Shown here: positions 7,488 to 47,453 of the stretch, in pieces
How the letters are laid out: the number at the start of each line of letters is the position of its first letter
How positions within the stretch are numbered: position 1 is the first letter of the stretch
Translations under genes and position numbers: made by a program
The notes under the pieces: model-generated
Databases searched by the model: none
What the model was told of the DNA's origin: nothing
Seen by the model: only the letters and a program-made list of their open reading frames with translations
NCBI GenBank assembly: GCA_019721035.1
Contig: JAHEAA010000001.1
Location: 39,991-103,990 of the forward strand
Reading direction: 5' to 3'
DNA length: 64,000 bases
From: Candidatus Sysuiplasma acidicola
Lineage (GTDB): Archaea; Thermoplasmatota; Thermoplasmata; Sysuiplasmatales; Sysuiplasmataceae

Positions 7488-7493
7488 ATGTCT

Positions 7494-8150: not shown

Positions 8151-8805
8151 AACCCGCCTCCGTGAAACCCTTCAGTCTGAGAAGGCACGAATCGCAGACG
8201 CCGCACGCCTTCTCCCTTCCGTTGTAACAGCTCCAGCTCAGTTCATATGGAGCTCCAAGCTTTTTCCCCATCGACACGATGTCTGCCTTGCTCATGGATA
8301 TGAGCGGAGCGAGGACCACAGGCGATTTGCCTTCAATGCCCGCCTTTGTCGCGACTGCCGCCATCCTGTTAAATGCATCCAGGAATTCCGGCCTGCAGTC
8401 CGGGTACCCGCTGTAGTCCACGGCGTTGATGCCTGTATAGATGTGCCGGCATGCTCTTGCCTCTGCGATGGCAAGCGCGACTGCCAGAAACACAGTATTC
8501 CTGGCAGGAACGTAGGTCACAGGTATGCCTTTTGTTCCACCCACGGGCACTTCGACACTCGGGTCCGTCAGTGCGCTGCCGCCTATTTCGGAGAAATCGA
8601 CATTCATTGTTATCTGTTCGGCGCAGTAATGGCTTGCTATGCGGCGTGCAGCATCGACTTCTCTGGAATGCCTCTGTCCGTAGTCGACCGTCAGTGCTAT
8701 GAAGTGGATGTTCTCCGAATGCAGAAACGCCGCAACTGTTGTAGAATCAAGCCCGCCCGAGAGGAGCAGGACGGCCTCTCTCACGCCAGGTGACGTTCCG
8801 TCCAT
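8119..8805 (-). CDS. queC: 7-cyano-7-deazaguanine synthase QueC
   Basis: 228 aa. PP-loop LLLSGGLDSTTVAAFL, then DYGQRHSREVDAAR. The C-terminal Zn site is CYNGREKACGVCDSCLLR. Confidence 0.9.
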   Translation of the reverse strand: MDGTSPGVREAVLLLSGGLDSTTVAAFLHSENIHFIALTVDYGQRHSREVDAARRIASHYCAEQITMNVDFSEIGGSALTDPSVEVPVGGTKGIPVTYVPARNTVFLAVALAIAEARACRHIYTGINAVDYSGYPDCRPEFLDAFNRMAAVATKAGIEGKSPVVLAPLISMSKADIVSMGKKLGAPYELSWSCYNGREKACGVCDSCLLRLKGFTEAGFEDPLEYENK

Positions 8806-9257
8806 GCCTCCTGTCCCCTGCCTTCAGAAACGCCGACTGAAATTGATTTCACATTTCCGCCGAAAATGCCGCTTCCTGCGAGCTCCTCCGCGAAGTAGGC
8901 CGAGAGTTCCTCGGCGCTCACATTCTTCAGCGGCAGCATCACGACATCCGATACTGGAAAGATGTACCTCTTTCCGCCAAATTTCACGGAAACAGAATTG
9001 CCGCTCTGCCGTAAAGTCATAGACTTTCCCGATCCGGGCAAAAGCATCCTGTGGTCAATTCTGTCTATGAGTTTGTTGGCTGCCTCCTTCAGTTTCATGA
9101 AATCGAGTATTATGCCGTTCCTGTCCGGCTCGCCTTCCACCACTATTGTCAGCGCGTAATTATGTCCGTGCAGCCTGCTGCATTTCTCAACGGATGGAAG
9201 GAAATGCCCGGCCACAAACCTGATGCCCGCGTCCCAGCCGTTTATGGATATTTTCAT
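8781..9257 (-). CDS. queD: 6-carboxy-5,6,7,8-tetrahydropterin synthase QueD (PTPS family)
   Basis: 158 aa. MKISINGWDAGIRFVAGHFLPSVEKCSRLHGHNYALTIVVEG carries the Zn-binding His triad and the CxxxHGH motif of QueD/PTPS. Confidence 0.85.
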   Translation of the reverse strand: MKISINGWDAGIRFVAGHFLPSVEKCSRLHGHNYALTIVVEGEPDRNGIILDFMKLKEAANKLIDRIDHRMLLPGSGKSMTLRQSGNSVSVKFGGKRYIFPVSDVVMLPLKNVSAEELSAYFAEELAGSGIFGGNVKSISVGVSEGRGQEAWTERHLA

Positions 9258-9320
9258 TGAATTCTTCTCTCTCAGCAGTGCAAGAATCAGACAGTTTATG
9301 CATATTTAAGCGATGCGTCT

Positions 9321-9872
9321 TCATTGCCTGAGTTCCTCCCAAATCTCGATGAAACTGTCCACTATTGTTCCCGGCGGCGGTTCGTAGTTCAAAAGCAGCC
9401 GCGCCGTTTGTGCCTCGTTGGTCAGCCTGTACCCTCTGTCCTCTCCAGTAGAAGTCTTTGTTATGATGCCCCTCCTGGCGAGCTTGTTCAGATGATGTGA
9501 CAGCGTGGAAGGGGAAATGCCCATGGCCGGCAGCATATCTTTGTGTTGCGCGGTGCCATTCTTCAAAATAAAGAGAACAATCTGCAGTGGAATCCTCTGT
9601 CTGAGCAGCGCTATCGCCCTCTTCTCGTCCTGGGAGAGGGCATCCCTCTTCTGTTCTGCACCTATGGGATCTTTCGGATAATAACGCCTGTACTGCCCGT
9701 CGGATATTGCAGTGACTATGCCGTGCTTTTCAAGTGAATTCAGATGGTAATCCACAAGCGGAACGCTCTCTTCCAGTTGCCTTGCGATCTCCCTGAGATG
9801 GAGTCCAGGGAACTTGCAGACCTCCTCGAAAATCCGCTTCCTTGTCTGCAGCTCGAGGACGTCATCCTCCAA
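9321..9872 (-). CDS. Transcriptional regulator with two winged-helix (ArsR/MarR-like) domains
   Basis: 183 aa. Two HTH-like segments: LREIARQLEESVPLVDYHLNSLEKHGIV and DMLPAMGISPSTLSHHLNKLARRGIITK. Confidence 0.6.
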   Translation of the reverse strand: MEDDVLELQTRKRIFEEVCKFPGLHLREIARQLEESVPLVDYHLNSLEKHGIVTAISDGQYRRYYPKDPIGAEQKRDALSQDEKRAIALLRQRIPLQIVLFILKNGTAQHKDMLPAMGISPSTLSHHLNKLARRGIITKTSTGEDRGYRLTNEAQTARLLLNYEPPPGTIVDSFIEIWEELRQ

Positions 9873-9884
9873 TTAAGAATCCCC

Positions 9885-10175
9885 CTATCTCTTCAGCGTT
9901 GCGCCGAATATCAGTAGTAATATTGCAATGTCTATCAGACCAACTGCCGTGAAAAAGACCGGAAGAGCGAAAACAGGCTGGAAGAGCTCATAGGTGAAGA
10001 TGATGCCCTGAATAAAGAATAGGAAGAAGGAGACCGAAATCATTGCTATTCTTGCATTCCTCTTCTTCCTGAACGCGAGTATCGAAATGATGAAAAGGAC
10101 GAAGGCAACAACCGTGACCCATGCCGCCACGAAATTCTGGACTGTTGCGAAGCTTAGAAGGGACATTCCCTGCAC
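9885..10175 (-). CDS. Small integral membrane protein (2-3 TM helices)
   Basis: 96 aa, almost entirely hydrophobic helices with a KKRN cytoplasmic loop. Confidence 0.35.
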   Translation of the reverse strand: MQGMSLLSFATVQNFVAAWVTVVAFVLFIISILAFRKKRNARIAMISVSFFLFFIQGIIFTYELFQPVFALPVFFTAVGLIDIAILLLIFGATLKR

Positions 10176-10192
10176 TTTCCGGCCGTGCCGAT

Positions 10193-11215
10193 TCAGTTCC
10201 TGCGCCTGTAGGCTGCTGAAGCCGCCACCAGCACGATCGCGAGTGTCAGCGCAATGCCGTATATTATTATGTTTCCTGCCGCCTTGACGGCATTGTATAC
10301 AGCTGAGGTAATCGTCTGGGCGCTAATGCCTATCGTCGGATCATGTACTATCTTCTGGGCTGCAGGATAAGTAAGCGTGAGTTCCTGGCCTGAGAATGAA
10401 TAGCCCACGACCGCGCGCGTCCAGCCCTGCATACCACCGTTGGACACATAGGCGGTCTTGTTCCAGGCAAAGTAACCAGAATTATTGCCTTCTGTAAAAT
10501 TGAGCGCGAAACCATTATGCGTGCTGACTGCCGGCGGTATTCCAGATGGTGCGCTTATTTTCATCTGCAACGATATGTTACCAGACACTGGCGGACTTGT
10601 CTGCAGATTCATCGGGGAGGTTATGCTTGTGTTGATTATGATGAACGACAGCTTCACCTCATTCGGTGTGAGTGTCATCATTTTGCCCTGCATTGCCGGT
10701 GTTTGCACAGACGACGGTGCTCCGTTGACCTGGGCGATCATCGCAAACATCGTGTTTTCATGCAACACATATACGCCGAATTCCCTATATGAGCTATTGA
10801 AATTGTTGTTCATGGACATGCTCATATTGCTGTACATGGAGCTGTCCATGAGTGAGAAACCGGAATCGCCGAAATCTATCAGCGTCTCATTTCCGCCTGA
10901 TGCAGTGCTATAGACAAGTTTGTTTAGTGTTACTGCAAACTCCAGCGAAGAATTCTGCTGATTGGTGCTGTTTCTGAACGTCATGAGAAGCGTGTTTCCT
11001 GCAAAAACAAGTTCGAACTCGTTACTGTGCCCCGGAGGCGCTATCGACTTCGAGTCGATGCTGAAATATCCGTTGTTTGATGCATCGACTGAAACTTCCC
11101 TGTCCTGAGAGCCGTTGTCTGCCCTGGCAATAGAGCTGTATGCCAGAGGAACGAGCAGTACGGCAACGATCAGTATCGCGCCAATCTTGAGCGAGATGTG
11201 CTTATACATTCTCAC
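10193..11215 (-). CDS. Secreted, C-terminally anchored Ser/Thr/Asn-rich surface protein. Probable glycoprotein.
   Basis: 340 aa. N-terminal signal/TM MRMYKHISLKIGAILIVAVLLVPLAYSSIARA. Low-complexity N/S/T-rich body with many N-x-S/T sequons. C-terminal TM plus basic tail IIIYGIALTLAIVLVAASAAYRRRN. Confidence 0.5.
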   Translation of the reverse strand: MRMYKHISLKIGAILIVAVLLVPLAYSSIARADNGSQDREVSVDASNNGYFSIDSKSIAPPGHSNEFELVFAGNTLLMTFRNSTNQQNSSLEFAVTLNKLVYSTASGGNETLIDFGDSGFSLMDSSMYSNMSMSMNNNFNSSYREFGVYVLHENTMFAMIAQVNGAPSSVQTPAMQGKMMTLTPNEVKLSFIIINTSITSPMNLQTSPPVSGNISLQMKISAPSGIPPAVSTHNGFALNFTEGNNSGYFAWNKTAYVSNGGMQGWTRAVVGYSFSGQELTLTYPAAQKIVHDPTIGISAQTITSAVYNAVKAAGNIIIYGIALTLAIVLVAASAAYRRRN

Positions 11216-11301
11216 ACAAAATCAATCAGCGGGGTATAAAAGACTTCTTTAACACGTTTCGAATTGATTTACCCTTACGTGGAATGCCTGTCTGGTTTCT
11301 T

Positions 11302-11934
11302 TCAGGTTCTGATAAGGTTCTTGCAGGATGTGTCGCCTTTGCCTATACACGAGACGAGTTCCACTTCCGCCTTCCCGATCGGTTCCTTTACAAATGATGT
11401 GTCGCACTCATTGCACAGCACGCTTGAGAAGAGTTTTGCAGTCTTGTTGAAAATACAGTTGTGCCTGACCACAAATGTCTTTTCGCCGTCCTTTTCCACC
11501 GTTGCCATGAATCCCATCATGTTCAGGAAATTCACAACTTTACTGATGCGTTCTTCAACTGGCAGAGTGCTTTCACCCTCTGAGTCCTTGTTGAAATCCT
11601 TGACGACCTCTGAAATGAGCTGACTAAGAAGCACGTCGCCGCTTTTTTCGTGTATTTTCCGCATCAGTACGTTCAACAGTGTGTCGTAATGCTTCGGCAA
11701 CAGCTCAACTCCCAGCGGGGTGAGGTGATAAACCTTCCTCGGCCTTCCGACACCAAGATTGACAAAGCGCGATGAGATGATGCCCATTCGCTCCAAGGCA
11801 TCCATGTGTTCCCTGACGGCAGTCGTATTTATGCCAAGCAGGCCGGCAAGCTGCTGGCCAGTCTTTTCCCCTTCCCCAAGGCTCGCTATGATCTTCGCTT
11901 TCGATTCGCCGAGCATAGAGAGGTCAGAGTCCAT
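11302..11934 (-). CDS. Winged-helix transcriptional regulator with a Cys-rich C-terminal domain. Candidate Fe-S-sensing, SufR-like regulator of the adjacent suf operon.
   Basis: 210 aa. N-terminal HTH KIIASLGEGEKTGQQLAGLLGINTTAVREHMDALERMGII. Five Cys in the C-terminal ~50 aa (RHNCIFNKTAKLFSSVLCNECD...VSCIGKGDTSCKN). Transcribed divergently from sufC across a 134-bp gap. Confidence 0.55.
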   Translation of the reverse strand: MDSDLSMLGESKAKIIASLGEGEKTGQQLAGLLGINTTAVREHMDALERMGIISSRFVNLGVGRPRKVYHLTPLGVELLPKHYDTLLNVLMRKIHEKSGDVLLSQLISEVVKDFNKDSEGESTLPVEERISKVVNFLNMMGFMATVEKDGEKTFVVRHNCIFNKTAKLFSSVLCNECDTSFVKEPIGKAEVELVSCIGKGDTSCKNLIRT

Positions 11935-11982
11935 AGTTTCACTGTAATTCTTCAGCTATCTGCAGCTATTTAATTTTATGCA

Positions 11983-12008
11983 ATTTAAACACTAAGATAT
12001 GTTTAAAT
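11983..12008. promoter_or_regulatory. Inverted pair of TATA-like elements (ATTTAAAC-N10-GTTTAAAT) in the divergent regulator/sufC intergenic region. Candidate bidirectional promoter and/or operator.
   Basis: ATTTAAAC at 11983-11990 and its exact reverse complement GTTTAAAT at 12001-12008. They lie about 50 nt and 60 nt upstream of the two divergent start codons, matching archaeal TATA consensus. Confidence 0.35.
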
Positions 12009-12068
12009 AGGAAATGACTTATCGAATAGCATACACCCCAAAAAATCCTTCAAAAAAGAGGCGTTGCA

Positions 12069-12824
12069 ATGGTTTCAGAACTCGTGATAAAGGACCTGCG
12101 GGTCAGCATAGAGGGAAAGCAGATACTTAAAGGGATCAATCTCACTGTGAGGCAGGGAGAGGTCCACGCAATCATGGGACCGAACGGCTCGGGAAAGAGC
12201 ACTCTGAGTTACGCTCTGATGGGACACCCCAAGTATCATGTGACCGGTGGACAGGTGTTGCTGGACGGCGAGGATATCATGGCCCTGGCGCCGGACAAGA
12301 GGGCCAGATTGGGCCTCTTTCTAGGCTTTCAGTACCCGGTGGAAGTGCCCGGCGTGAGACTGGGCAATTTTCTCAGGATAGCTTATAACGGCGCTCACGC
12401 CGACAATCAGCTCAGCCCCACAAAGTTTTTCAGGCTGCTTAAGGAAAAGGTAAATCTCCTTGGCATCGATGAGAATTTCATAGGGCGCTCACTGAATGAA
12501 GGTTTCTCCGGCGGCGAAAAGAAAAGGGCTGAAGTGCTGCAGATGGCCGTGCTGCAGCCCAAATTCGGAATACTCGATGAGACAGACAGCGGCCTGGATA
12601 TTGATTCTCTCAAAATTGTTTCAAACGCGATAAACACCATGGCCGGTCCGGGCATCGGTCTCGTGCTGGTCACACACTACCAGCGTCTTCTGCAGTACAT
12701 CACACCGCAGTTTGTGCATGTTGTCGTGGATGGCAGAATAGTGAAGAGCGGCGGAAGAGAGCTGGCAAAGGAACTGGAGGAAAAAGGATATGACTGGCTC
12801 AAAGAACCGGCTATAACCGGGTAG
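12069..12824 (+). CDS. sufC: Fe-S cluster assembly ATPase SufC
   Basis: 251 aa. Walker A GPNGSGKSTL, ABC signature FSGGEKKR, Walker B ILDETDSGLD. A SufC-typical soluble ABC ATPase. Confidence 0.9.
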   Translation: MVSELVIKDLRVSIEGKQILKGINLTVRQGEVHAIMGPNGSGKSTLSYALMGHPKYHVTGGQVLLDGEDIMALAPDKRARLGLFLGFQYPVEVPGVRLGNFLRIAYNGAHADNQLSPTKFFRLLKEKVNLLGIDENFIGRSLNEGFSGGEKKRAEVLQMAVLQPKFGILDETDSGLDIDSLKIVSNAINTMAGPGIGLVLVTHYQRLLQYITPQFVHVVVDGRIVKSGGRELAKELEEKGYDWLKEPAITG

Positions 12825-12835
12825 AGGACATCGAC

Positions 12836-13213
12836 ATGGCATTTGACATTTATCAGGAAGAAATAATAGAACATTACAAGAAGCCTCAGAACAAGGGTGT
12901 GATAGAGCATCCGGACATGTTCAGCCACGGCAATAATCCGGTATGCGGTGATGACATAACTGTGTACCTTCGAGTCAACAACGATACAATCACTGATGTC
13001 AAGTTCGACGGACGCGGATGTGCCATAAGCCAGGCGTCCGCCTCCATGCTCACAGAAAAGGTGAAGGGCATGAAGCTGGCGGATGTTGCGAAGCTCACCG
13101 CAGACGACATAAAGGAGATGCTGCACATTCCACTCAGTGCTGTTAGAATGAAGTGTGCGACTCTTTCTCTTAACACGATTCATGAAGCAACAGCAGGAGG
13201 GGCTGTACGGTGA
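12836..13213 (+). CDS. sufU: Fe-S cluster scaffold / sulfur transferase, SufU-type (IscU/NifU-like)
   Basis: 125 aa. The three conserved Cys motifs are NPVCGDD, GRGCAISQASASM and RMKCATLSL. The KCATL motif is SufU-like rather than IscU HCSML. Confidence 0.75.
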   Translation: MAFDIYQEEIIEHYKKPQNKGVIEHPDMFSHGNNPVCGDDITVYLRVNNDTITDVKFDGRGCAISQASASMLTEKVKGMKLADVAKLTADDIKEMLHIPLSAVRMKCATLSLNTIHEATAGGAVR

Positions 13214-14142
13214 TTTGCAATGAAGTGAGAATGCAGTATGGTGACGACATACTGAGCAGGATAGGCAACACGCCTCTCCTGAGGCTCGAGAGGATCACGC
13301 AAGGCATGCCTCGAGTTCACATTTACGCAAAGGCGGAATGGTTCAACCCTGGAGGAAGTGTGAAGGACCGAACGGCGCTGGGTATCGTGGATGAGGCAAT
13401 AGTCTCGGGCAAACTCACAAAGAACAAAGTGCTGCTGGATGCTTCCTCGGGAAACACTGGCATAGCATACTCGATGATATGCGCTGTCAAGGGATTCAGA
13501 TCGACTATAGTGGTTCCCGGCAACATCGGGAAGGAGAAGCTCGAGATACTCAGGGCATACGGAGCAGAAGTAGTTCTCAGCAGCCCGATGGAAGGCACAG
13601 ACGGCTCGCAGAGACTTGCGAAAAAGATGGCCGAGCAGCATCCTGATCTCTACTTTTATGCAGACCAGTACAACAATGAAAGCAACTGGAAGGCTCACTA
13701 CTTACGCACTGGACGGGAGATTTTCGAACAGACAGAAGGTGAAATTGATTATTTCGTAGCCGGGCTCGGTACAGGCGGAACGTTTACCGGTGTGAGCCGC
13801 CTGCTGAAAGAGAGAAATAAATCAATAAGAACGGTGGCTGTCGAACCAGATTCCCCCTTGCACGGTATAGAGGGTCTGAAAAGAATGGACGCATCGGTGA
13901 GGCCCGGCATTTATGACGAGTCTATCGCTGATGAGCACGTCTATGTCAGCACCGAGGACGCGCAGAAGACGGTAATCAGAGCCGCCAGGACGGAAGGATT
14001 GCTTCTCGGCGTGAGCTCGGGAGCCGCGCTAAAGGCGTGCATGGACATAGCGGAGAGAGAAGGGAGAGGAAACATTGTGACGGTTTTTCCGGACAACGGT
14101 CAGCGGTATCTTGGCGAAAAGTTCTGGGAGGACAATCTATGA
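13210..14142 (+). CDS. cysM: PLP-dependent cysteine synthase homologue (CysK/CysM fold). Probable CysM-type enzyme that uses a protein thiocarboxylate.
   Basis: 310 aa. PLP-lysine motif GGSVKDRTALGIVDEA. Asn-loop and Gly-rich loop SSGNTGIAYS...GTGGTFTGV. The stop TGA overlaps the ATG of the downstream CysO-like gene (ATGA). Confidence 0.8.
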   Translation: MICNEVRMQYGDDILSRIGNTPLLRLERITQGMPRVHIYAKAEWFNPGGSVKDRTALGIVDEAIVSGKLTKNKVLLDASSGNTGIAYSMICAVKGFRSTIVVPGNIGKEKLEILRAYGAEVVLSSPMEGTDGSQRLAKKMAEQHPDLYFYADQYNNESNWKAHYLRTGREIFEQTEGEIDYFVAGLGTGGTFTGVSRLLKERNKSIRTVAVEPDSPLHGIEGLKRMDASVRPGIYDESIADEHVYVSTEDAQKTVIRAARTEGLLLGVSSGAALKACMDIAEREGRGNIVTVFPDNGQRYLGEKFWEDNL

Positions 14143-15569
14143 CTGCATCAAGTGTAAAGGTAATGATTCCCACGCCGCTAAGGCAGTATGTGGGTAACAG
14201 GGACACAGTTGAACTCAGGGGCGAGACGGTAGACGAAGTGCTGCGCAGTCTGGCCGATTCAAGCGTACAGCTGAAGAAACACCTGTATGACGACGGAGGG
14301 AAGATACGGAATTTCGTTAACGTGTACTTGAACGAGGAGGACATACGCTACCTTGAACGCGGCAGGACACAGGTCAGGGAAGGCGACGTGATAGCGATCA
14401 TTCCATCTATCGCCGGCGGCGCTGCCGGACTGGAGGAAGCATTCTCGTACGAAGACATACAGAGATACAGCCGCCATCTGCTTCTGCCCGAAGTGGGTCT
14501 GGAGGGCCAGCTCAAGCTGCGAAATTCCAGTGTGCTGGTTATCGGCGCGGGCGGTCTCGGCTCACCTCTGCTGCTTTATCTGGCCGCCGCGGGCGTAGGA
14601 ACAATTGGTATTGTCGACTTCGACACAGTCGACTTCAGCAACCTTCAGAGGCAGATTATACATTCACAGAAGGATGTCGGAAGGAAGAAAATCGATTCTG
14701 CGGAAGAGAAGATAAAGGGAATAAATCCGCACATCAGGGTCGTCAAGCATGAAGTTCAGATAACTTCTGAAAATGCGTTTGACATCATACGCAATTACGA
14801 CGTGGTGATAGACGGCACAGACAATTTTCCGACGCGTTACCTCGTCAACGATGCCTGCGTGCTGCTCGGAAAACCAAATGTCTACGGCTCCATTTACAGA
14901 TTCGAGGGACAGGTGTCGGTGTTCGATGCAAAAAGGGGTCCATGCTACAGGTGCCTGTATGAGAATCCCCCGCCTCCAGGACTCGTTCCATCCTGCGCAG
15001 AAGGAGGAGTCGTCGGCGTTCTTCCGGGAACGGTCGGAACGCTTCAGGCGATGGAAACAATCAAGCTAATACTCGGCCAGGGCGAACCGCTGATTGGTAG
15101 GCTTCTTCTGTTCGACGCGATGAAAATGCGCTTCAAGGAACTGAAACTCAGAAAGAATCCGGACTGTCCTGTCTGTGGAACCCATCCGACAGTGACCGAG
15201 CTCATAGACTACGAGCAGTTCTGCGGCATAACACATAATGCCGAAGCCGAAGGAGATGTGATTACTGTTGAGGAGCTGAACAGAAAATTCGGCGCAGGCG
15301 AATCGTTTGTGCTCCTCGATGTAAGGGAACCGCAGGAATGGGACATATGCCGCATAAACGGCGCGAAGCTCATTCCGATGAATGATGTCCCGGCAAGGGT
15401 AAGCGAACTCAATACGGCTGACGACATCATTGTGTACTGTAAGGCGGGACAGCGCAGCGCATACGTAATGAATTTCCTGAAGGATATCGGTTTCAGAAAG
15501 GTCAGGAATCTTAAGGGCGGCATCAATGCATGGGCGGAAAAAGTGGATCCGTCCTTGCCGAGGTACTGA
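14139..15569 (+). CDS. In-frame fusion of a CysO/ThiS/MoaD-like beta-grasp sulfur carrier (residues 1-96, ending ...IIPSIAGG) to a MoeZ/MoeB-type E1-like adenylyltransferase with a C-terminal rhodanese domain
   Basis: The first ~96 aa align along their length with M. tuberculosis CysO (IPTxLR...FVNxYxNEEDxRx...GDxxxIxPxxAGG). A 4-aa linker follows. Then E1 motifs RYSRHLLLPEVGLEGQLKL, GAGGLGSPLLLYLAAAGVG and a Zn tetracysteine CYRC...CPVC. The rhodanese domain has catalytic Cys in YCKAGQRS. No stop separates the GG from the E1 domain. The start is the ATG at 14139, which overlaps the cysM stop. Confidence 0.8.
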   Translation: MTASSVKVMIPTPLRQYVGNRDTVELRGETVDEVLRSLADSSVQLKKHLYDDGGKIRNFVNVYLNEEDIRYLERGRTQVREGDVIAIIPSIAGGAAGLEEAFSYEDIQRYSRHLLLPEVGLEGQLKLRNSSVLVIGAGGLGSPLLLYLAAAGVGTIGIVDFDTVDFSNLQRQIIHSQKDVGRKKIDSAEEKIKGINPHIRVVKHEVQITSENAFDIIRNYDVVIDGTDNFPTRYLVNDACVLLGKPNVYGSIYRFEGQVSVFDAKRGPCYRCLYENPPPPGLVPSCAEGGVVGVLPGTVGTLQAMETIKLILGQGEPLIGRLLLFDAMKMRFKELKLRKNPDCPVCGTHPTVTELIDYEQFCGITHNAEAEGDVITVEELNRKFGAGESFVLLDVREPQEWDICRINGAKLIPMNDVPARVSELNTADDIIVYCKAGQRSAYVMNFLKDIGFRKVRNLKGGINAWAEKVDPSLPRY

Positions 15570-15612
15570 CGATGAATATCAATGTGGCAGGTAATGAAAT
15601 GGAAGTGATTAA

Positions 15613-17016
15613 ATGGTAAACGAACAGGCAATAGATCGTGACTACAGCAAGTATGGATTCTATGATGAAGACGCGAAGTACGTCTTCCAGACCAAGAGAG
15701 GTCTGAGCAAAGAAGTCGTGGAAGCCATATCGAAACACAAGAATGAACCGCAGTGGATGCTGGACTTCAGACTCCGCTCGCTGGACTTGTTTAACCGGAA
15801 ACCGCTCCCCGCATGGGGCACGGATCTGAGCGAGATAGACTTCGATAGCATCTATTACTACATGGCGCCATCGGGCAAGAACAGCGACAGCTGGGACGAT
15901 GTGCCCGATTACGTGAAGAGAACATTCGACAAACTCGGGATACCGGAGGCGGAAAAGAAGTTCCTAGGCGGCGTCGGGGCTCAGTATGACAGCGAGGTCG
16001 TCTACCACAAGATACGCGAGGACCTGAGCAAGAAGGGTGTCATCTTCATGGGCACCGACGAGGGCCTTAGAGAGCATCCAGAAATATTCAAAGAATACTT
16101 CGGCACGATCATACCACCAGAAGACAACAAGTTTGCGGCGCTCAACAGCGCCGTCTGGAGCGGTGGCAGTTTCATCTATGTGCCGGAAGGCGTCGAGGTC
16201 GACATACCGCTGCAGGCGTATTTCAGGATCAATGCGAGGAGCGTCGGTCAGTTCGAGAGGACGCTGATCATAGCGGAGGAGAAGAGCCGCATACACTACA
16301 TCGAAGGCTGCACGGCACCGACATATTCCAAGGATTCGCTGCATTCCGCGGTCGTGGAGATACTGGCGAAGAAAGGTGCATACGTCCGCTATACCACCAT
16401 TCAGAACTGGTCCAACAATGTTTACAATCTGGTAACCAAGAGGGCGTTTGCGCATGAGGACGCGACCGTTGAGTGGATTGACGGAAACATAGGATCGAAA
16501 CTGACAATGAAATATCCGTCCGTATACCTGCTGGGACCAAGAGCAAAGGGTGAGGTGATATCCATAGCCTTTGCTGGCAGGGACCAGCATCAGGATGCCG
16601 GAGCGAAGATACTGCATTTCGCGCCTGAGACGACGTCGAGGATCACGTCGAAGAGTGTGAGCAAGGACGGCGGAAGGACAACATACCGCGGTCTCCTGCA
16701 CATAGAGAAGGGCGCCACTGCGTCAAAGAGCAGCGTCAGATGCGACGCACTGCTGCTTGACGAAAAGTCCAGAACGGACACATATCCATACAATGAGATT
16801 AATGAGGAGACTGCGTCGACAACGCACGAGGCAACAGTCGGAAAGATAAGTGAGGAGCAGCTGTTCTATCTGATGTCCAGGGGACTGAGCGAGGCAGACG
16901 CCCTCAACATGATCGTCATGGGTTTCCTCGACGTATTCTCGAAGGAACTTCCCATGGAGTATGCGGTCGAGCTGAACAGACTGATACAGCTCGAAATGAC
17001 CGGTTCCGTCGGGTGA
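15613..17016 (+). CDS. sufB: Fe-S cluster assembly protein SufB
   Basis: 467 aa. Conserved SufB core [23 protein letters not shown]. Length and homology extend across the whole protein. Confidence 0.9.
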
Positions 17017-18443
17017 ACCTGAAACGACGGTGCTCCGTTATGGCAGTAACAACACGCGACTTGCTCAAACCGGCCGAGTCGGACCTTCCCGAAATCATTG
17101 GTGAACCCACGTGGTTGAAGGAATATAGGAGACATGCACTGCGGGTGTTCAGCTCATCGAAGGTCGAACCGAATCCGCTGTATGTGAAGTATGAGACACT
17201 CACCAGGTTTGAGGCGGCGGGCGTGGCGGTCGCGGAGCCACCCGTAAAGACGGACAGCATAACGGGGGGTTTCGCCGATCTCGTTAGCAGCAGCACATTC
17301 ATGCTGCAGTCCGGAGGAGCGTTCCATATTGCAGGCGACCTGCCACCGGGCGTTATTTTCGAGGAGATGCACGATGCGATCACGAAACACGGCAATATGC
17401 TAAAGGAAGCATTCGGCAGGAAGGGTCTGAGTCCAGAGGACGACGTCTACGTCGCACTCAACAGTGCCATGTTCTCCTCCGGATATTTCCTGCATGTGCC
17501 GGACGGCGTCGTGCTTGAGAGCCCGATACACATACTCAATATCGAAGATGTTCCGGGCACCGCAAGATTCAACCAGAACATCGTGCAGATTGGTGATAAT
17601 GGCGGTGCAACTGTCATCGAGGAGATACTATCCCCTGAAGATTTCTCCCGGAAGTCGTTGTTTTCCAGCGTGACAGATGTGATGCTCGGCCGGAACGCAG
17701 AGCTGCATCATGCATCTCTTGAGAACCTTTCCTCCGGAGCAGTATACCTTTCCAGCAAGAGGTGTCTCGCCTCGAGCGACAGCAGGATGCACTGGGTTTC
17801 CAGCATGATGGGGTCGGATGTGACCAGATCGCGCGCTGATACCAGATTCGTGGGCCGTGGCGCATCTACTGACGATTACGAGATATTGTTCGGCAACGGC
17901 AAACAGCGATTTGACGTGGTGACCGATTTACACCACGATGTCGAGTCCACAAACGGCCGGATTACCGTCAGAAGCGTGCTGAAGGGACAGTCAAGGGCTC
18001 TTCTTCGCGGCATGATCAGGATTGGCGAGAATGCGGCGAATACAAACTCCTATCTTGCGGAACACGGCATGCTCATGAGCAAGGACGCAAAGTGCGACGC
18101 CATACCCGGACTGGAGATACTGACGAACGGCGTCAAGGCCACACACTCCGCGTCAGTTTCCCAGCTGGACGATCAGCAGCTGTATTACATTCAGTCGAGG
18201 GGTCTTGACAGGGATGAGGCCGAAAAGATGCTCGTTCTCGGTTTCTTTGATCCGGTGATTTCAAGAGTGCCGCTGGATACAATACGCGACAAGCTGCGAT
18301 TCCAGATAGAGGATAAATGGAACAATGTAGTATCGCTAAAAGCATCCAGGCATCTCGATGAAATTGAATTTGAGAAGTATGTCAAGGACCAGATCAAGGG
18401 ACCGGGAGAAAGCATTTTCGAAGGGCACTACAAGTACAGGTGA
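17013..18443 (+). CDS. sufD: Fe-S cluster assembly protein SufD
   Basis: 476 aa. SufB/SufD beta-helix family. ATGA overlap with the sufB stop. Position and length are typical of SufD. Confidence 0.85.
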
Positions 18444-18755
18444 GTGTCTTTGCCCTTCACAAAGGTGGCGTCCAGGACGGATTTTATGGGGCGAAGCATA
18501 AAGAAGGTCGATGTGGACGGCCGCAGCATCATGATAATAAGGCTGGGTGAAGAATACCACGCACTGGATGCCACGTGCACGCACGAGGACGCAGATTTGT
18601 CCAGAGGCATTCTCATGGGACGGACGATAGTGTGCCCCCTTCACCTGTCGCGATTCAGCGTCGACACCGGTGAAGTGGAGAATCCGCCGGCGACAGAGCA
18701 TCTGCAGAAGTATGAACTTAAAGTGGAAGGAGACGATATACTTGTCGAACTGTGA
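18444..18755 (+). CDS. Rieske [2Fe-2S] ferredoxin-like protein
   Basis: 103 aa. CTHEDADLSRGILMGRTIVCPLH is the CxH-x15-17-CxxH Rieske motif. Similar small Rieske proteins occur inside actinobacterial suf operons. Confidence 0.8.
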   Translation: MSLPFTKVASRTDFMGRSIKKVDVDGRSIMIIRLGEEYHALDATCTHEDADLSRGILMGRTIVCPLHLSRFSVDTGEVENPPATEHLQKYELKVEGDDILVEL

Positions 18756-20002
18756 GTGGAGCTTCCATGCATGCGCTTGACAGACTGGAACAAATTTCGC
18801 CTCTGAAGCGTGATTTTCCGATATTCTCGGAGAAGAGCAGGGAGTCGCTAGTCTATCTGGACAGTGCGGCAACCAGCCAGAAACCCGCCGTCGTCATAGA
18901 TGCAGTGGATGAATTCGAGAGGAGCTGCAACGCAAATGTGCACCGCGGCATATACCCTCTCAGCGAAGAAGCCACCGAACGATACGAAGACGCGAGGACC
19001 AAGGCTGCCCGTTTCATTGGTGCGCGTTCGCCTTCAGAAATAGTCTTCCTGCGGGGAACGACCGAGGCGCTGAATGTGCTGGCGCTGAGTTTCGGAACAT
19101 GGAAACTCAGGCGAGGCGACGAGGTGCTCACGACCGTAATGGAACATCATTCCAATATCGTGCCCTGGCAGATGCTCTCCTGGAAGGGTGTCGTCGTGAA
19201 ATTTGTCGATATCGACGAGAGGGGGCACATAGATATGGCCGATTTCGAAAGCAAGATCAGCGACAGGACGAAAATAGTCACCATCGCCCATGCGTCAAAC
19301 GTGCTTGGTACAGTGAATCCTATCAGGGAGATGGGAAGAATTGCACACGAACATTCGTCGACATTCATAGTGGACGGGGCTCAGTCCGCTCCCCATATTC
19401 CGCTCAACATGAAGGATTTGGAATGCGACTTTTTTGCGCTGTCGGGCCACAAGATGCTTGCACCCACCGGCATCGGCGTGCTGTATGGTCGCAGCGAACT
19501 GCTGCAGGAGATGGAACCGGCATTCGGCGGCGGTGAGATGATCAGCGAAGTGCATCAGCGCGGCTCAAAGTGGGCCGATCCGCCGTACAGGTTCGAGGCG
19601 GGCACTCCAAACATCAGCGGAGCGATTGGCCTCGGGGCCGCGATAGACTATCTCACCTCGATTGGAATGGAGAATGTGGAAAGATATGACAAGGAGATAC
19701 TTACCTATGCAATGAGCCGTCTTCTTGAGAACAAAGACATAGAAATATACGGTCCGACGGATATTGAGGAGAGGAGCGGCGTCATATCTTTCAACATCAG
19801 AGGCGTGCATGGCCACGATACGGCCGAAATACTGGGAAGGGAGGGTGTGGCGATAAGGTCCGGGCATCACTGTGCACAGCCGTTGATGGACAGACTCCAA
19901 ATACCGTCAACATCAAGGGCGTCATTCCAGATATACAACGGGCGGAGCGACATAGATGCCCTCGTGAACGCACTCGATGTTGTCAGAAAGGTGTTTGCCT
20001 GA
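18752..20002 (+). CDS. sufS: Cysteine desulfurase SufS (class II aminotransferase-V)
   Basis: 416 aa. PLP-Lys in ALSGHKMLAPTGIGVLYG. Catalytic Cys loop RSGHHCAQPLM is typical of SufS/CsdA group II. Confidence 0.9.
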   Translation: MSGASMHALDRLEQISPLKRDFPIFSEKSRESLVYLDSAATSQKPAVVIDAVDEFERSCNANVHRGIYPLSEEATERYEDARTKAARFIGARSPSEIVFLRGTTEALNVLALSFGTWKLRRGDEVLTTVMEHHSNIVPWQMLSWKGVVVKFVDIDERGHIDMADFESKISDRTKIVTIAHASNVLGTVNPIREMGRIAHEHSSTFIVDGAQSAPHIPLNMKDLECDFFALSGHKMLAPTGIGVLYGRSELLQEMEPAFGGGEMISEVHQRGSKWADPPYRFEAGTPNISGAIGLGAAIDYLTSIGMENVERYDKEILTYAMSRLLENKDIEIYGPTDIEERSGVISFNIRGVHGHDTAEILGREGVAIRSGHHCAQPLMDRLQIPSTSRASFQIYNGRSDIDALVNALDVVRKVFA

Positions 20003-20041
20003 AATACTCGTTTTGTTCATTGCTCCGGCGGAGCGCGATGA

Positions 20042-20473
20042 ATGGGTGATGCAATGGCGCTATACCTGCGAAACGACGTTTCCCGTTCCGTTATCAGACA
20101 CGCATCCGAGACATTTCCGGAGGAATGCTGCGGTTTCCTGATCGGTGAGGATGGAGGCGATCGGATGACGATGGAAGCACAGAGAGCAAGAAATTCTGCT
20201 ACAGAATCTAAAGGAAGCAGATATGTCATAGATCCTCTGGAAATAATGAAATGCGAAAGGGAATCTGCCTCCCGTGGACTCAGGGTGCTGGGTTACTACC
20301 ACTCCCATCCTGATCATCCTTCCATCCCCTCCGAATTCGACAGGCAGAATGCGTGGCCGGGCTACTCCTATCTCATTGTAAGCGTAATTTCCGGACACCC
20401 TTCAGGCATGCGGTCATGGCGGCTGACAGACGACAGATCACGTTTCGTCCGGGAAGAATTGTTTTATGAGTAA
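20042..20473 (+). CDS. JAMM/MPN+ (Mov34) zinc metalloprotease, Mec+/QbsD/HvJAMM-like
   Basis: 143 aa. EECCGFLIGE (Glu), then JAMM motif GYYHSHPDHPSIPSEFD (HxHx7Sx2D). Confidence 0.85.
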   Translation: MGDAMALYLRNDVSRSVIRHASETFPEECCGFLIGEDGGDRMTMEAQRARNSATESKGSRYVIDPLEIMKCERESASRGLRVLGYYHSHPDHPSIPSEFDRQNAWPGYSYLIVSVISGHPSGMRSWRLTDDRSRFVREELFYE

Positions 20474-20478
20474 ACTCC

Positions 20479-21255
20479 GTGCATCACCGTTGGTGTTGTG
20501 ATATGGACAGCAAGCTCAGATTTTCCGACAGAGCTTGCGACTATGCCCTCTACCGGCCTTCTTATCCCGCAGGCCTCATTGACGTGCTTGCATCGGAAGC
20601 GTCTTTTGCACCGGGATGTGTGGTGGCCGACGTCGGGGCAGGCACCGGAAAATTGTCCGCCCTTTTTGCTGACAGAGGTGCTGCAGTGTACTGCATAGAG
20701 CCGAACCCTGAAATGCTGCATGCTTGTATCAGTGAGCTAGGTGCAAGGAAGAACTGTCACTTCATACGGGCCACGGCAGAACGAACCGGCCTAGTCTCAG
20801 GCTCCGTGGACATCGTTTCGGCAGGACAGTCATTTCACTGGTTCGATGTGGAAGCTGCCCGGACGGAATTTCTGAGAGTGCTCCATCCCGACGGATGCGT
20901 ATTTATCGTCTGGAACACGAGAGACAACAAAGCGAACCCGTTCATGATTGAGTATGGTAAACTGTTGGAAAAACATGCCAGCCGGGGAGCGCCTGTCCTC
21001 AGCTCCGAGAGAGCCGGCATAGAGATACTTTTCGGGCAAAGCCGCTTCAAAAGCGGTGAACTGACAAATTCGCAGACGCTTGATTTGGCGGGTCTGATCG
21101 GAAGGTTGGCCTCTTCGTCCTATCTGCCGTCTAGAGGTTCTGTGGGCTACGACTCGATGCTGTCCGATGCGCTTGCTCTTTTCAAACGATTCGAGATCAA
21201 CGGACGGGTGCAATTGCTCTACAGAACGGAATATTTTATTGGAAGACCGGAATAG
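20479..21255 (+). CDS. Class I SAM-dependent methyltransferase (type 11)
   Basis: 258 aa. Motif I VVADVGAGTGKLSALFADRGAAVYCIEPNPEML. Starts 6 nt after the JAMM stop, so it is probably in the same operon. Confidence 0.7.
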   Translation: MHHRWCCDMDSKLRFSDRACDYALYRPSYPAGLIDVLASEASFAPGCVVADVGAGTGKLSALFADRGAAVYCIEPNPEMLHACISELGARKNCHFIRATAERTGLVSGSVDIVSAGQSFHWFDVEAARTEFLRVLHPDGCVFIVWNTRDNKANPFMIEYGKLLEKHASRGAPVLSSERAGIEILFGQSRFKSGELTNSQTLDLAGLIGRLASSSYLPSRGSVGYDSMLSDALALFKRFEINGRVQLLYRTEYFIGRPE

Positions 21256-21315
21256 GATTAAACGGAACGGGACCTGTTCTCCTGTCTTCGGACCGTGAAA
21301 AGCACCGGTGGAGTA

Positions 21316-21483
21316 TCAATGGAAGAGATAGACAGAGTTTCCCCTGTTCTTTCTCCTGTTTCTTCTGCGCCAGATAATCAGGATGAGCAATATGAGCAGT
21401 ATGACAATTGCAATGGCAATATTGTCAAACGCGCTCAGCGCCGCAAATGCCGCCGATGCCTGAATCTGTCTGCCATCATCCAT
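21316..21483 (-). CDS. Possible small tail-anchored membrane protein of 55 aa
   Basis: Read by eye. It is below the ORF-track size cutoff. MDDGRQIQASAAFAALSAFDNIAIAIVILLILLILIIWRRRNRRKNRGNSVYLFH has a single C-terminal TM helix followed by a poly-basic stretch. The competing + strand ORF 21295-21513 has no features. Confidence 0.25.
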   Translation of the reverse strand: MDDGRQIQASAAFAALSAFDNIAIAIVILLILLILIIWRRRNRRKNRGNSVYLFH

Positions 21484-21547
21484 GCCTGCCAAACAACGTC
21501 ACTCGTGATTTAAGTCTTCTCCTGCTTCACAGGCCGCTTTCAATTTT

Positions 21548-22042
21548 TCACGTCTTTCTCGCGAATACTCCGTAATGGAACTCGGCAGCGCAGAAAATTT
21601 TCTCGATTGCAAAGCCTGCTCCTGCGATGAGCGTCTCGGCCTCCTCCTGCGAGAGTCGTTCGGACAGCGGAGGACCAATCGGCGTCTTCTGTTTCTCCCA
21701 TTCAATTGCTCCCAGCACACCATTTTTCCTGAGTATTCTATGGACTTCCTTCAGTGTGGCATCCCCTTCCAGTTCATGCAAAGTCGTGATCATCAGTGCC
21801 ACATCAACCGTACCGCTCCCTGCCGGAATTTTCTGCTCCTCCGACAGTATGAATTTTACATTCCGGAGGCCATTTTTCCCGGCGATATTTTTAGCCATGC
21901 CGATGAACTGCTCCTGTATGTCAACGGCAATAACCTTTCCCGTCTCACCGACACTTTCAGAAGCGGCCGCCAGGAAAGCACCTGGGCCGCATCCGACGTC
22001 CATCAGAACATTTCCCTTCCTGATGCCAAACAAACTCATCAC
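21548..22042 (-). CDS. Class I SAM-dependent methyltransferase (UbiE/ArsM-like)
   Basis: 164 aa. Motif I VLMDVGCGPGAFLAAASESVGETGKVIAVDIQEQFI and post-II NVKFILSEEQKIPAGSGTVDVA. Confidence 0.7.
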   Translation of the reverse strand: MMSLFGIRKGNVLMDVGCGPGAFLAAASESVGETGKVIAVDIQEQFIGMAKNIAGKNGLRNVKFILSEEQKIPAGSGTVDVALMITTLHELEGDATLKEVHRILRKNGVLGAIEWEKQKTPIGPPLSERLSQEEAETLIAGAGFAIEKIFCAAEFHYGVFARKT

Positions 22043-22144
22043 TGCAGCAGGCTGCAGCAGACTGAGTCTTTCCTCGCTCAGCAGGACGTCGCCTATCCCG
22101 ACAGGAAACTTCCTCTTCTTCTTCGTGGCCGCTCCTCCCCCTCG

Positions 22145-23380
22145 TCAATATGATGCATTGCGCAGCTCTTTCATATTTGTTGCTGCTGCGCAGGTGACCA
22201 GCATCAGCAAGGCGAAGAACAGATAGACGCCTTGCACTCCCATAACATCCACAAGTAAGCCGCTAGCCATCATGGAGAGCGAAGCGCTGCCGAGCAGCAG
22301 AAGGCTCAGGGCGGCAAGCACGCTGCCGAGACGTTCATTCGGCGTTCTGGCCTGGATGAGCGTAACAAACGGGACAATCGATATGCCCTCCACGAAGCCT
22401 ATCACCACTGAGACGGCAACTGCCAGCAATGCGTTGCCCGAATAGGCAAAAAGTATGTAGAGAAAGGCATCGACGGTGTTTGATATTATCAGTATCTTCC
22501 CCACTCTGCTCCCGGGATTGAATTTTGTCACTATGTAATTGCCGGCGACCGTTCCGGCAGCAAGAAAGACCAGTATTGAAGCAAAGATGCCAGGACCGGA
22601 TCTGAAAACTACTTTGGCCATGATGGCAGGGAGCACTATCATGCCTGCACCCGTGAAATTTACAACAGAAAGGAAGATAGCAATTTCCAGTATGAGCCTG
22701 TCGCTCCGGATATAACGCAAACCGTCGAAACCGCTCCTCTTCTTTGTACTCCTTTTCTGCCCCGAAAGGTTCATTCCGCCGAACATCAGAGCGCTGGTCA
22801 AGAACACTGCAACCTCGATGAGCGCTATTCCGCGTATACCTAACAGGAGCAACAGTGCGCCTCCCGCAAGGAATCCGAAAATCCTGGTGAGCTGTGTCGT
22901 CGCCTGCTGCAGCGAATTTGCCGCAGTGAGTTCATCCTTAGGAACTGTAAGCGGTATGCTGCTGCTCCTGGAAATCGAAACAAGGAATCCAAAACTGGCT
23001 ATTGAGAAGACCGCAATGAATGATGTTTGCAGTACAAACACGTCGAACGTTATCGAAAGGTAGAGAAGTATTGCAAATGTCATCTCCGAAAGCGTTGCGG
23101 CAATCATGACTTTCTTTCTGTTGTAGCCGTCGGCTATCTTGCCGAATACAGGTGCAAACAGGAACGTAGGAGCATAATATGCCGCAGCAATGAGACCAGC
23201 GTACATCACATTGTGCGTCAGCACTCCATATACGAACCACAGCATGGCTATGGAGAGCAGATTGTCTCCTGTCCTTGACACCAGTGTTGCTGCCCAGAGA
23301 TAGAAGAAACTCCTGTTGCCTAGTACCCTGAAGTACCCCACCTTAGGGTGAACTGTTTCTGTAGTCAAATTAGAGCCCAA
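22145..23380 (-). CDS. MFS transporter (EntS/YbdA-like exporter family)
   Basis: 411 aa, about 12 TM helices. N-terminal YFRVLGNRSFFYLWAATLVSRTGDNL is typical of this MFS subfamily. Confidence 0.8.
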   Translation of the reverse strand: MGSNLTTETVHPKVGYFRVLGNRSFFYLWAATLVSRTGDNLLSIAMLWFVYGVLTHNVMYAGLIAAAYYAPTFLFAPVFGKIADGYNRKKVMIAATLSEMTFAILLYLSITFDVFVLQTSFIAVFSIASFGFLVSISRSSSIPLTVPKDELTAANSLQQATTQLTRIFGFLAGGALLLLLGIRGIALIEVAVFLTSALMFGGMNLSGQKRSTKKRSGFDGLRYIRSDRLILEIAIFLSVVNFTGAGMIVLPAIMAKVVFRSGPGIFASILVFLAAGTVAGNYIVTKFNPGSRVGKILIISNTVDAFLYILFAYSGNALLAVAVSVVIGFVEGISIVPFVTLIQARTPNERLGSVLAALSLLLLGSASLSMMASGLLVDVMGVQGVYLFFALLMLVTCAAATNMKELRNASY

Positions 23381-38442: not shown

Positions 38443-38451
38443 GCTGGTGAT

Positions 38452-40386: not shown

Positions 40387-40388
40387 CT

Positions 40389-42041: not shown

Positions 42042-42044
42042 TCG

Positions 42045-43526: not shown

Positions 43527-43560
43527 GGCTCCGCAAACATCAAGGCAGGTGTATCTGTAA

Positions 43561-47438: not shown

Positions 47439-47453
47439 ATGTAATCACCATCT

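Follow-up and report, generated by a model that had tools for sequence, protein, structure and literature searches.

Known systems and the locus under study

The protein families treated here are all known, and so are the stand-alone module that makes cysteine from a protein thiocarboxylate and the SufS-SufU type of SUF machinery, which builds iron-sulfur (Fe-S) clusters. The present study deals with a locus in which the two are joined, namely a string of ten genes at positions 12069-21255 of a 64,000-nucleotide stretch of Candidatus Sysuiplasma acidicola, an uncultured archaeon of acid environments (GenBank assembly GCA_019721035.1, contig JAHEAA010000001.1, positions 39,991 to 103,990 of the forward strand). 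This whole stretch is called the window below, and all coordinates refer to it. With a confidence slightly better than even, the string is read as a SUF unit with a built-in, bacterial-type thiocarboxylate supply of cysteine, co-expressed with the SufS that consumes cysteine. The union of SUF and module, appended in several lineages of the Thermoplasmatota and interleaved in a Sysuiplasma-like clade, appears to be new, as do the position of the module behind a SufR-like regulator and its occurrence in archaea. An earlier description of this DNA (the original prediction) had held the interleaving to be undescribed. Full-text literature searches likewise returned no description of a SUF/CysO-module operon, within a coverage that is incomplete and does not prove absence. 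In a 2026 review on Fe-S proteins, the terms "thiocarboxylate", "CysO" and "cysteine synthase" do not occur.

The CysO/CysM/Mec+/MoeZ(R) pathway of M. tuberculosis shares with the locus a ubiquitin-fold carrier, whose Gly-Gly is terminal in CysO but internal in the archaeal fusion, an E1-like activating enzyme that bears a rhodanese domain at its C-terminus, a hydrolase of JAMM type and a pyridoxal 5'-phosphate (PLP) enzyme of the CysM family. MoeZR acts as a thiosulfate sulfurtransferase and places the thiocarboxylate on CysO (PMC3227635). In contrast to that pathway, the carrier of the archaeal locus is an N-terminal fusion to the E1, so that proteolytic release is needed first. The CysM-like enzyme has no C-terminal tail and is no closer to CysM than to CysK, and the host is an archaeon. 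The neighbourhoods differ as well: the mycobacterial genes belong to the ClpS-containing actinobacterial type 4d (Iyer et al. 2006), whereas here they lie within a SUF operon.

A stand-alone module of identical gene content was predicted by Iyer, Burroughs and Aravind (2006). Their operon type 4c, consisting of ThiS/MoaD, E1-rhodanese, JAB and cysteine synthase, was found in Acidobacteria, Chloroflexus, Salinibacter, Rubrobacter and others, and a coupling of sulfur transfer to cysteine production was suggested. However, "Suf" does not occur in that paper, and the window has the triplet in two parts: cysM and the fusion follow sufU and precede sufB, and the JAB gene comes after sufS.

As for SUF itself, SufS-SufU systems are ordered as sufCDSUB (Firmicutes), sufR-sufBD-(Rieske)-CSU or, in loci found in this study, sufC-sufB-sufD-Rieske-sufS-sufU. 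The locus has the same components, i.e., SufB, SufC, SufD, a group II SufS, a U-type protein, a Rieske protein and a SufR-like regulator. Unlike in those systems, the module interrupts the gene order, the U-type protein (125 residues) is without the insertion typical of SufU, and the regulator is only remotely SufR-like. A cysteine-biosynthesis gene beside genes for a desulfurase and a scaffold has a precedent in CysE1/NifP of the Azotobacter nif region, which was proposed to raise the cysteine pool (PMC6006210). That case differs in that it concerns O-acetylserine supply and free sulfide, NIF-type assembly and another domain of life.

Organization of the locus

The ten open reading frames are co-directional on the + strand, and all ten matched the expected families in profile searches (Pfam and NCBIfam). 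NCBIfam scores are compared with the curated cutoffs of the models, in bits. The features are as follows:

12069-12824, + strand: sufC, SufBC2D ABC-type ATPase (TIGR01978, 342.6 bits, cutoff 212.8)
12836-13213, + strand: short U-type protein, SufU-like, 125 residues (NifU_N, 7e-33; TIGR01994, 116 bits, cutoff 92.5)
13231-14142, + strand: CysM/CysK-family PLP enzyme, 303 residues (PALP, 4e-68; alternative GTG start at 13210)
14139-15569, + strand: fusion of ThiS, ThiF and Rhodanese, 476 residues, one uninterrupted reading frame
14139-14420, + strand: CysO-like ubiquitin-fold carrier domain, fusion residues 1-94, ending in IPSIAGG (ThiS, 3e-12)
14421-14465, + strand: linker after Gly-Gly (AAGLEE...), predicted JAMM processing site; variable, of low model confidence
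14466-15173, + strand: E1-like adenylyltransferase domain of MoeB/MoeZ/ThiF type (ThiF, 5e-87)
15264-15539, + strand: C-terminal rhodanese domain, active-site loop CKAGQRS (Rhodanese, 7e-20)
15613-17016, + strand: sufB (TIGR01980, 716.9 bits, cutoff 346.4)
17040-18443, + strand: sufD (TIGR01981, 226.4 bits, cutoff 222; start taken from gene calls on matching contigs)
18444-18755, + strand: small Rieske [2Fe-2S] protein (Rieske, 3e-16; CxH...CxxH motif)
18767-20002, + strand: sufS, group II cysteine desulfurase (TIGR01979, 564 bits, cutoff 475)
20042-20473, + strand: JAMM/MPN+ metallopeptidase, Mec-like (Prok-JAB, 6e-25)
20503-21255, + strand: class I S-adenosylmethionine-dependent methyltransferase (Methyltransf_11, 1e-17)

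The gene order is thus sufC, sufU, cysM-like, carrier-E1-rhodanese fusion, sufB, sufD, Rieske, sufS, JAMM and methyltransferase. All ten gene identities of the original prediction are borne out by these searches, which it had proposed for each frame, including those of the CysM-like, CysO-like, E1 and JAMM frames. Its statement that the genes are co-directional and tightly packed was confirmed, as the junctions range from -4 to 43 nucleotides (nt). It had further counted four ATGA/GTGA overlaps. The ATGA shared by cysM and the fusion (14139-14142) holds and is the only robust overlap, but the three GTGA overlaps at 13210, 17013 and 18752 arise only with the starts of the longest reading frames. 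Gene callers on matching contigs mostly start at ATG 13231, 17040 and 18767, leaving gaps of 17, 23 and 11 nt. The fusion is taken to start at ATG 14139 and not at GTG 14037 of the longest reading frame, because the ThiS domain begins directly after this ATG and the calls for the identical protein on public contigs use it.

The exact fusion protein is encoded on 20 public contigs with unchanged gene order; assemblies with it are GCA_019720995.1, GCA_021798215.1, GCA_027379195.1 and GCA_029850475.1. Among named genomes, those of Thermoplasmata archaeon WH2.bin25 (identity of 94%) and of Candidatus Sysuiplasma superficiale (83%) come nearest. Archaeal-type genes lie in the neighbourhood, e.g., for diphthamide synthase, an HVO-type helix-turn-helix (HTH) protein and Thy1. 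Neither Rfam models nor a tRNA scan detected an RNA element within the string or close to it. A trio of genes for 7-cyano-7-deazaguanine synthesis (QueE-like radical SAM, QueC and QueD/PTPS; 7494-9257, - strand) adjoins the diphthamide synthase gene and is kept upstream of the SUF string in all relatives.

Regarding the SUF proteins, SufB, SufC and SufD all score above their equivalog cutoffs, SufD marginally. SufS carries the motif RSGHHCA at residues 364-370 and the PLP lysine in SGHK (226-229). The ligands of the U-type protein are present (Cys37, Asp39, Cys62 and Cys107), and the residue before the last Cys is a Lys, not a His, which is also the case in SufU of B. subtilis. Its score for TIGR01994 exceeds the cutoff, yet only positions 3-94 of the 137 of the model are matched. 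The spacing between Cys62 and Cys107 is 45 residues, and the SufU-specific insertion of about 19 residues relative to IscU is not present. Many of 80 loci of SufB relatives (see below) have a Rieske gene that either separates sufD from sufS or follows sufU, and the Rieske protein is a regular member of this type of SUF operon.

The carrier-E1-rhodanese fusion and its predicted processing

The reading frame of the fusion has no stop codon where IPSIAGG passes over AAGLEE to the E1 domain. The architecture of ThiS, ThiF and Rhodanese recurs in 119/120 of the best homologues listed; the remaining one is shorter and covers 68% of the query. Most of the listed homologues are bacterial, with 62-66% identity, Acidobacteria and Armatimonadota being among them. 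An origin of the fusion by assembly error or frameshift was considered and rejected on account of these 119 homologues and the 20 contigs with the exact protein.

The best matches of the carrier domain among solved structures are 4n6e_B (ThiS/MoaD family) and 3dwg_C (M. tuberculosis CysO in its complex with CysM), both of which align end to end with the carrier from residue 5 to the terminal Gly-Gly. The motif P-[SA]-[IV]-A-G-G is invariant in 120/120 fusions, and the linker that follows varies among these homologues in length and sequence. In an AlphaFold2 model of the fusion, the mean predicted local distance difference test (pLDDT) score is 84; it falls below 50 at residues 91-100, and a few loops are low as well. 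The E1 part has the invariant features GAGGLGS (nucleotide loop), DGTDN, the zinc motifs CYRC and CPVC, and the crossover-loop Cys286. Against the MoeZ model NF005902 it scores 517 bits, below the cutoff of 647. The rhodanese Cys434 is invariant in 55 fusions.

The Gly-Gly of the carrier is internal in the fusion, and a free C-terminus would need cleavage. As adenylation needs a free carboxylate, a cut after Gly94 would be required. The JAMM protein has an intact motif (Glu27/28, H87-S-H89-x7-S97-x2-D100), its best solved match is 2kcq, and a JAB gene was present in every cysM-JAB-fusion module inspected. Since the internal Gly-Gly is invariant, the linker variable and disordered in the model, the JAMM motif intact and the JAB gene always present, we infer that the JAMM enzyme would cleave the precursor after Gly94.

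HcyS and QbsE are sulfur carriers whose C-terminal extension is removed by a JAMM enzyme, as worked out in the Begley laboratory. In HcyS/HcyD, QbsE/QbsD and the fused MoaD-MoaE protein MoaX, as in the present fusion, an extension or a partner has to be removed to expose the Gly-Gly before adenylation. There, however, what is removed is an extension of one or two residues or MoaE as the partner, whereas here the partner is the activating E1 itself. According to the title of one report, cleavage of MoaX is necessary for activity (PMC4326299).

The CysM-like enzyme

The CysM-like enzyme has an invariant PLP lysine (in SVKDR) and an invariant SGNTG loop. The position of Arg220 in CysM of M. tuberculosis, which was checked on the sequence of the PDB entry, is taken by another basic residue, the Lys in GLKRM. 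The protein is 49-54% identical to the cysM products of bacterial cysM-JAB-fusion modules. The features that set it apart from the mycobacterial enzyme are taken up below, where its function is weighed.

Distribution and probable history of the gene order

The interleaved order, with the regulator upstream of sufC, sufU, cysM, fusion, sufB, sufD, Rieske, sufS and JAB, was found in seven lineages (the window, L009, L010, L011, L012, L119 and, as far as its contig reaches, L026). Identities are 71-94% for the fusion, and for SufD, JAB and the regulator they go down to 51-57%. Downstream of JAB, a methyltransferase gene is confined to the window, L010 (identity of 69%) and L012 (39%), and is not present in L009, L011 and L119. 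It is therefore considered accessory and outside the conserved unit, so that the ten-gene unit first proposed is conserved from sufC to JAB but not in its last gene.

A tandem layout, sufS-sufU-cysM-JAB-fusion, is present on five other contigs of Thermoplasmatota type (L116, L013, L034, L035 and L014). The first reads sufC sufB sufD Rieske sufS sufU cysM JAB fusion, with a SufB 69% identical to that of the window. L013, L034 and L035 read sufB sufC sufD sufU sufBD-like sufS sufU cysM JAB fusion (SufB 42% identical), and in L014 the unit sufS sufU cysM JAB fusion is divergent from sufC sufB sufD Rieske. The tandem loci span at least two SUF operon types. A DUF1684 protein is encoded 3' of the fusion in L013, L034, L035 and L116, not in L014, and in three of these four it is preceded by a protein of about 105 residues with no Pfam match; both may be further members of the tandem-type unit.

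No SUF gene was found within 10 kb of the bacterial cysM-JAB-fusion modules in 4/4 cases (L007, L008, L117 and L118). These triplets are compact, and their proteins are 33-67% identical to those of the window. In L117, an Rrf2-family regulator gene stands directly 5' of the triplet (7973-11440), which hints at an IscR- or CymR-type control of the bacterial module. The search was also made from the side of SUF. Genes for CysM, JAB and the carrier-E1 fusion were found in 0/80 metagenomic loci whose SufB is 64-76% identical to that of the window, 45/80 of these loci being at least 10 kb long. The sole match to a module query was found in L081, where the opposite strand has a stretch resembling E1-rhodanese with 33% identity. 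Such loci typically read sufC sufB sufD (Rieske) sufS sufU. In the locus of the closest metagenomic SufB relative (L036, 76%), about 6 kb lie between sufD and Rieske-sufS-sufU (6489-12489).

On three contigs of Vicinamibacterales type (L016, L017 and L018; about 10000-18600), an E1-rhodanese gene lies directly upstream of genes for Rrf2, an IscS-like desulfurase and SufA and of sufBCDSU. This neighbourhood was considered as a bacterial counterpart of the archaeal loci and rejected: it is without carrier, CysM and JAB, the Rrf2 regulator intervenes, and it was treated as incidental. It could be a second, independent E1-rhodanese/Fe-S neighbourhood, or chance.

In a neighbour-joining tree, the fusions of these archaeal loci form a group separate from those of bacteria. 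The tandem layout of SUF and module is probably ancestral. In the simplest history suggested by the compared loci, an operon sufCBD-Rieske-sufSU would have gained the triplet at its 3' end, and the Sysuiplasma-like clade would later have woven the two together. The interleaving noted in the original prediction is real, but is better described as a lineage-specific rearrangement of a wider tandem layout. A common, already annotated operon type was one of the outcomes named there as speaking against it; the arrangement is indeed common within the lineage (seven lineages), but no published description of it was found. The linkage of SUF and module has been kept through at least four gene orders, which argues for selection on co-expression.

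The upstream regulator and promoter block

Two features precede the string:

11302-11934, - strand: divergent HTH regulator, 210 residues, distantly SufR-like (TIGR02702 alignment)
11983-12009, no strand assigned: conserved promoter block with an inverted repeat (perfect 9-nt repeat ATTTAAACA-N8-TGTTTAAAT)

Residues 15-208 of the regulator align to positions 6-208 of the 208 positions of TIGR02702 (SufR_cyano), with an E value of 1.4e-13 and a score of 51 bits against a cutoff of 178.8. Five C-terminal cysteines (RHNC, LCxxC and CxGKGxxxC) are invariant in six orthologues, and the regulator keeps the same position in every interleaved locus. Its homologues of 24-28% identity adjoin sufB in loci that read reg-sufB-sufD-Rieske-sufC-sufS-sufU. 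It is considered a remote relative that would work like SufR, to judge from its architecture, its position and its cysteines, and it is not filed as a member of the SufR family. Two reading frames without a Pfam or NCBIfam match (9885-10175, - strand, 96 residues, and 10193-11215, - strand, 340 residues) are conserved in every related archaeal locus, where the SufR-like regulator flanks them on one side and a double-HTH protein of ArsR type on the other.

A block of about 40 bp between regulator and sufC is near-invariant in six lineages, whose regulators are only 53-69% identical, and the flanking intergenic DNA is not conserved. The right arm of the inverted repeat overlaps the archaeal TATA consensus TTTAAATA (12002-12009). 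This box occurs in 3 copies in the 64 kb, one of them 60 nt upstream of sufC, and in none within 12069-21255. The two genes start divergently, and each arm is 50-60 nt away from one of their start codons; the repeat ATTTAAACA-N8-TGTTTAAAT therefore may be a pair of TATA boxes, an operator or both; probably, it consists of two back-to-back TATA boxes and/or an operator. Scans of 11000-22500 for sigma-70 promoters and intrinsic terminators gave no excess over shuffled sequences; their models are bacterial, and they are inappropriate here because the host is an archaeon.

A single promoter is supported by the conserved block upstream of sufC, by the lack of an internal TTTAAATA and by gaps of at most 43 nt. 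As part of the best explanation, the string from sufC onward would therefore be one transcription unit, an aerobic-type archaeal SUF operon.

An A-type Fe-S carrier (Fe-S_biosyn, 118 residues) is encoded at about 52777-53133 (+ strand), at a distance of 32 kb to the SUF operon. Its gene has one of the three TTTAAATA boxes 36 nt upstream. An operator common to this gene and the suf promoter was considered and rejected, as the two have in common the TATA box and a few flanking bases (GTTTAAATAG), and not the inverted repeat.

Proposed function and alternatives

In the proposed mechanism, the regulator would sense the Fe-S status of the cell and de-repress the whole string. The precursor of 476 residues would be cut by the JAMM enzyme after Gly94, giving a 94-residue ubiquitin-fold carrier with a Gly-Gly carboxylate. 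By the chemistry of the MoeZ/MOCS3 family, the E1 would adenylate Gly94, and the persulfide on rhodanese Cys434 would turn it into a thiocarboxylate. The sulfane sulfur most likely would come from thiosulfate or sulfide and not from cysteine, because cysteine-derived sulfur would make a futile cycle. As modelled on CysM/CysO/Mec of M. tuberculosis, the CysM-like enzyme would form aminoacrylate from O-phosphoserine (OPS) or O-acetylserine and react it with the thiocarboxylate; after an acyl shift, the JAMM enzyme would free cysteine, and the carrier would be recycled. On the SUF side, Cys369 of SufS would draw sulfur from cysteine and pass it over the U-type protein to SufBC2D, as in the SUF family; the Rieske protein would be an accessory, possibly an electron donor. 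The catalytic residues of JAMM, E1, rhodanese, SufS and the PLP enzyme are all present.

From this we infer a functional coupling of the module to Fe-S assembly, which apparently would provide cysteine at the place and time of its use by SufS. Oxidative stress is the condition that SUF is built for, and it also induces moeZ, mec, cysO and cysM of M. tuberculosis (PMC11361707).

Several points weigh against this SUF unit with its own cysteine supply. The CysM-like protein scores below the NCBIfam cutoffs for both cysM and cysK (TIGR01138 for cysM, 324.6 against 394.2 bits), it matches CysK1 with 228 bits and M. tuberculosis CysM with 173 bits, and it is without the C-terminal tail of the latter. 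It is not specially close to the OPS-using CysM, and its substrates and product are therefore putative. The regulator is only a remote relative of SufR (51 bits against the cutoff of 178.8). The single transcript is predicted from the sequence, and archaeal promoters may lie within the coding sequence. Moreover, the archaeal loci share ancestry, and their counts are not independent.

The sulfur donor is a further such point. In characterised systems, the rhodanese domains of such E1 enzymes are mostly loaded by a cysteine desulfurase. An author of the MoeZR study assumes a cysteine desulfurase as the donor for MoeZR (PMC3227635). The conserved adjacency to sufS-sufU fits a relay from SufS to the rhodanese just as well.

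Such a relay is the core of a serious alternative, although we regard it as unlikely. The module would then be a sulfur-relay hub that runs in reverse: persulfide from SufS and the U-type protein would load the rhodanese, and the E1 would thiocarboxylate the carrier and possibly other carriers of ThiS/MoaD type, in parallel to Nfs1-MOCS3/Uba4 and IscS-MoeB. Its outputs would be tRNA thiolation, molybdopterin or other thio-cofactors, with the CysM-like enzyme as a side branch or a salvage step. Every tandem arrangement keeps sufS-sufU beside cysM-JAB-fusion, and MoeZR serves both molybdenum cofactor and cysteine synthesis, a desulfurase being the assumed donor (PMC3227635). In Thermoplasma, bacterial E1-like enzymes have apparently replaced the ancestral archaeal form, so the E1 of the locus could be the general one of the cell (PMC2948915). 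Nevertheless, the CysM-family gene is invariant in the module of archaea and bacteria alike, and the carrier is CysO-like. A return of cysteine sulfur to cysteine would be futile, unless the E1 also serves other carriers. Regarding these, no acceptor gene of TtuA/NcsA, MoaE or ThiG type was found nearby, and a search of the window for a second, free-standing Gly-Gly carrier gave only spurious overlapping reading frames.

An alternative of still lower probability concerns the product. The CysM-like enzyme might use the thiocarboxylate to make another beta-substituted alanine or a thio-metabolite, supplied alongside SUF. This would agree with its scores below the curated cutoffs of every cysteine-synthase model and with the presence of SbnA, cysteate synthase, O-ureidoserine synthase and cystathionine beta-synthase among the significant matches. 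However, its best matches are all cysteine synthases, and the PLP lysine, the Asn loop and the basic residue at the Arg220 position are conserved. The composition of the module also equals that of the characterised pathway of M. tuberculosis.

The linkage might also be merely historical, a notion to which we give little credence. SUF and module would have been transferred from bacteria together or side by side and then shuffled, and shared expression would be their only coupling. Both parts are of bacterial type, the fusion having 62-66% identity to its counterparts in Acidobacteria and Armatimonadota; methanogenic relatives are almost devoid of SUF systems with SufD (PMC8351635), and the clustering of the archaeal fusions in the tree is compatible with one acquisition. 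It is difficult to reconcile such a history with the persistence of the linkage across two SUF operon types and at least four gene orders, or with a clade that has the module split and woven among the suf genes with reading frames overlapping or near-abutting. The composition is fully ameliorated (GC content of 0.527 in the string against 0.514 in the window). A recent horizontal arrival of the string was examined separately and rejected, as the composition shows no signal of it.

Protein conjugation in the manner of the archaeal SAMP/UbaA/HvJAMM1 system, acting on SUF proteins or other targets, is very improbable: the folds and the archaeal host are common to both, and NCBIfam models for SAMP1 (52.5 bits), for UbaA (361.6 bits) and for desampylase (91.2 bits; JAB has no other family listed) are among the matches, but all stay below their cutoffs (60, 450 and 130 bits), the E1 has a rhodanese domain and is matched better by models of MoeB/MoeZ, the carrier is fused and among solved structures matches CysO best, and a cysteine-synthase gene is the obligate partner.

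Returning to the SUF unit with its own cysteine supply, the link between its two halves could be closer than co-expression. The two might form a direct protein-to-protein sulfur circuit, in which either the SufS/SufU persulfide feeds the rhodanese-E1 or a thiocarboxylate, charged with thiosulfate sulfur through the rhodanese domain, feeds the SUF scaffold or the U-type protein. This is doubtful to a high degree. If true, the second version would provide a cysteine-independent, sulfide-free entry of sulfur into the Fe-S clusters of aerobic, acid-dwelling archaea, and either version would bear on what loads CysO-type carriers in vivo.

Other features of the window

Apart from the SUF region, the window contains a large alpha-glucan cluster at 36265-52579, with GlgB-like, GlgE-like and TreS/alpha-amylase-like proteins, more alpha-amylases, GH31 and a protein of 493 residues without a Pfam match. 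A KdpABC potassium-transport ATPase operon lies at 32058-35937 (- strand), with kdpC just downstream and an AsnC-type regulator nearby. The sole RNA gene detected in the window is tRNA-Gly(GCC) at 56771-56844 (- strand).

Significance

The locus is a concrete and conserved example from archaeal genomes of a single predicted promoter that would serve both the synthesis of cysteine and its desulfuration. It is also a natural system for asking which sulfur donor a CysO-type carrier uses, as the candidates, SufS/SufU and thiosulfate via the rhodanese, are encoded side by side. The widespread precursor of carrier, E1 and rhodanese, with its invariant internal Gly-Gly and together with its obligate JAMM enzyme, would be a simple prokaryotic analogue of the processing of ubiquitin precursors. 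Furthermore, the series of gene orders records how an operon can absorb a foreign module, which is stand-alone in bacteria, then appended to SUF and finally woven into it.

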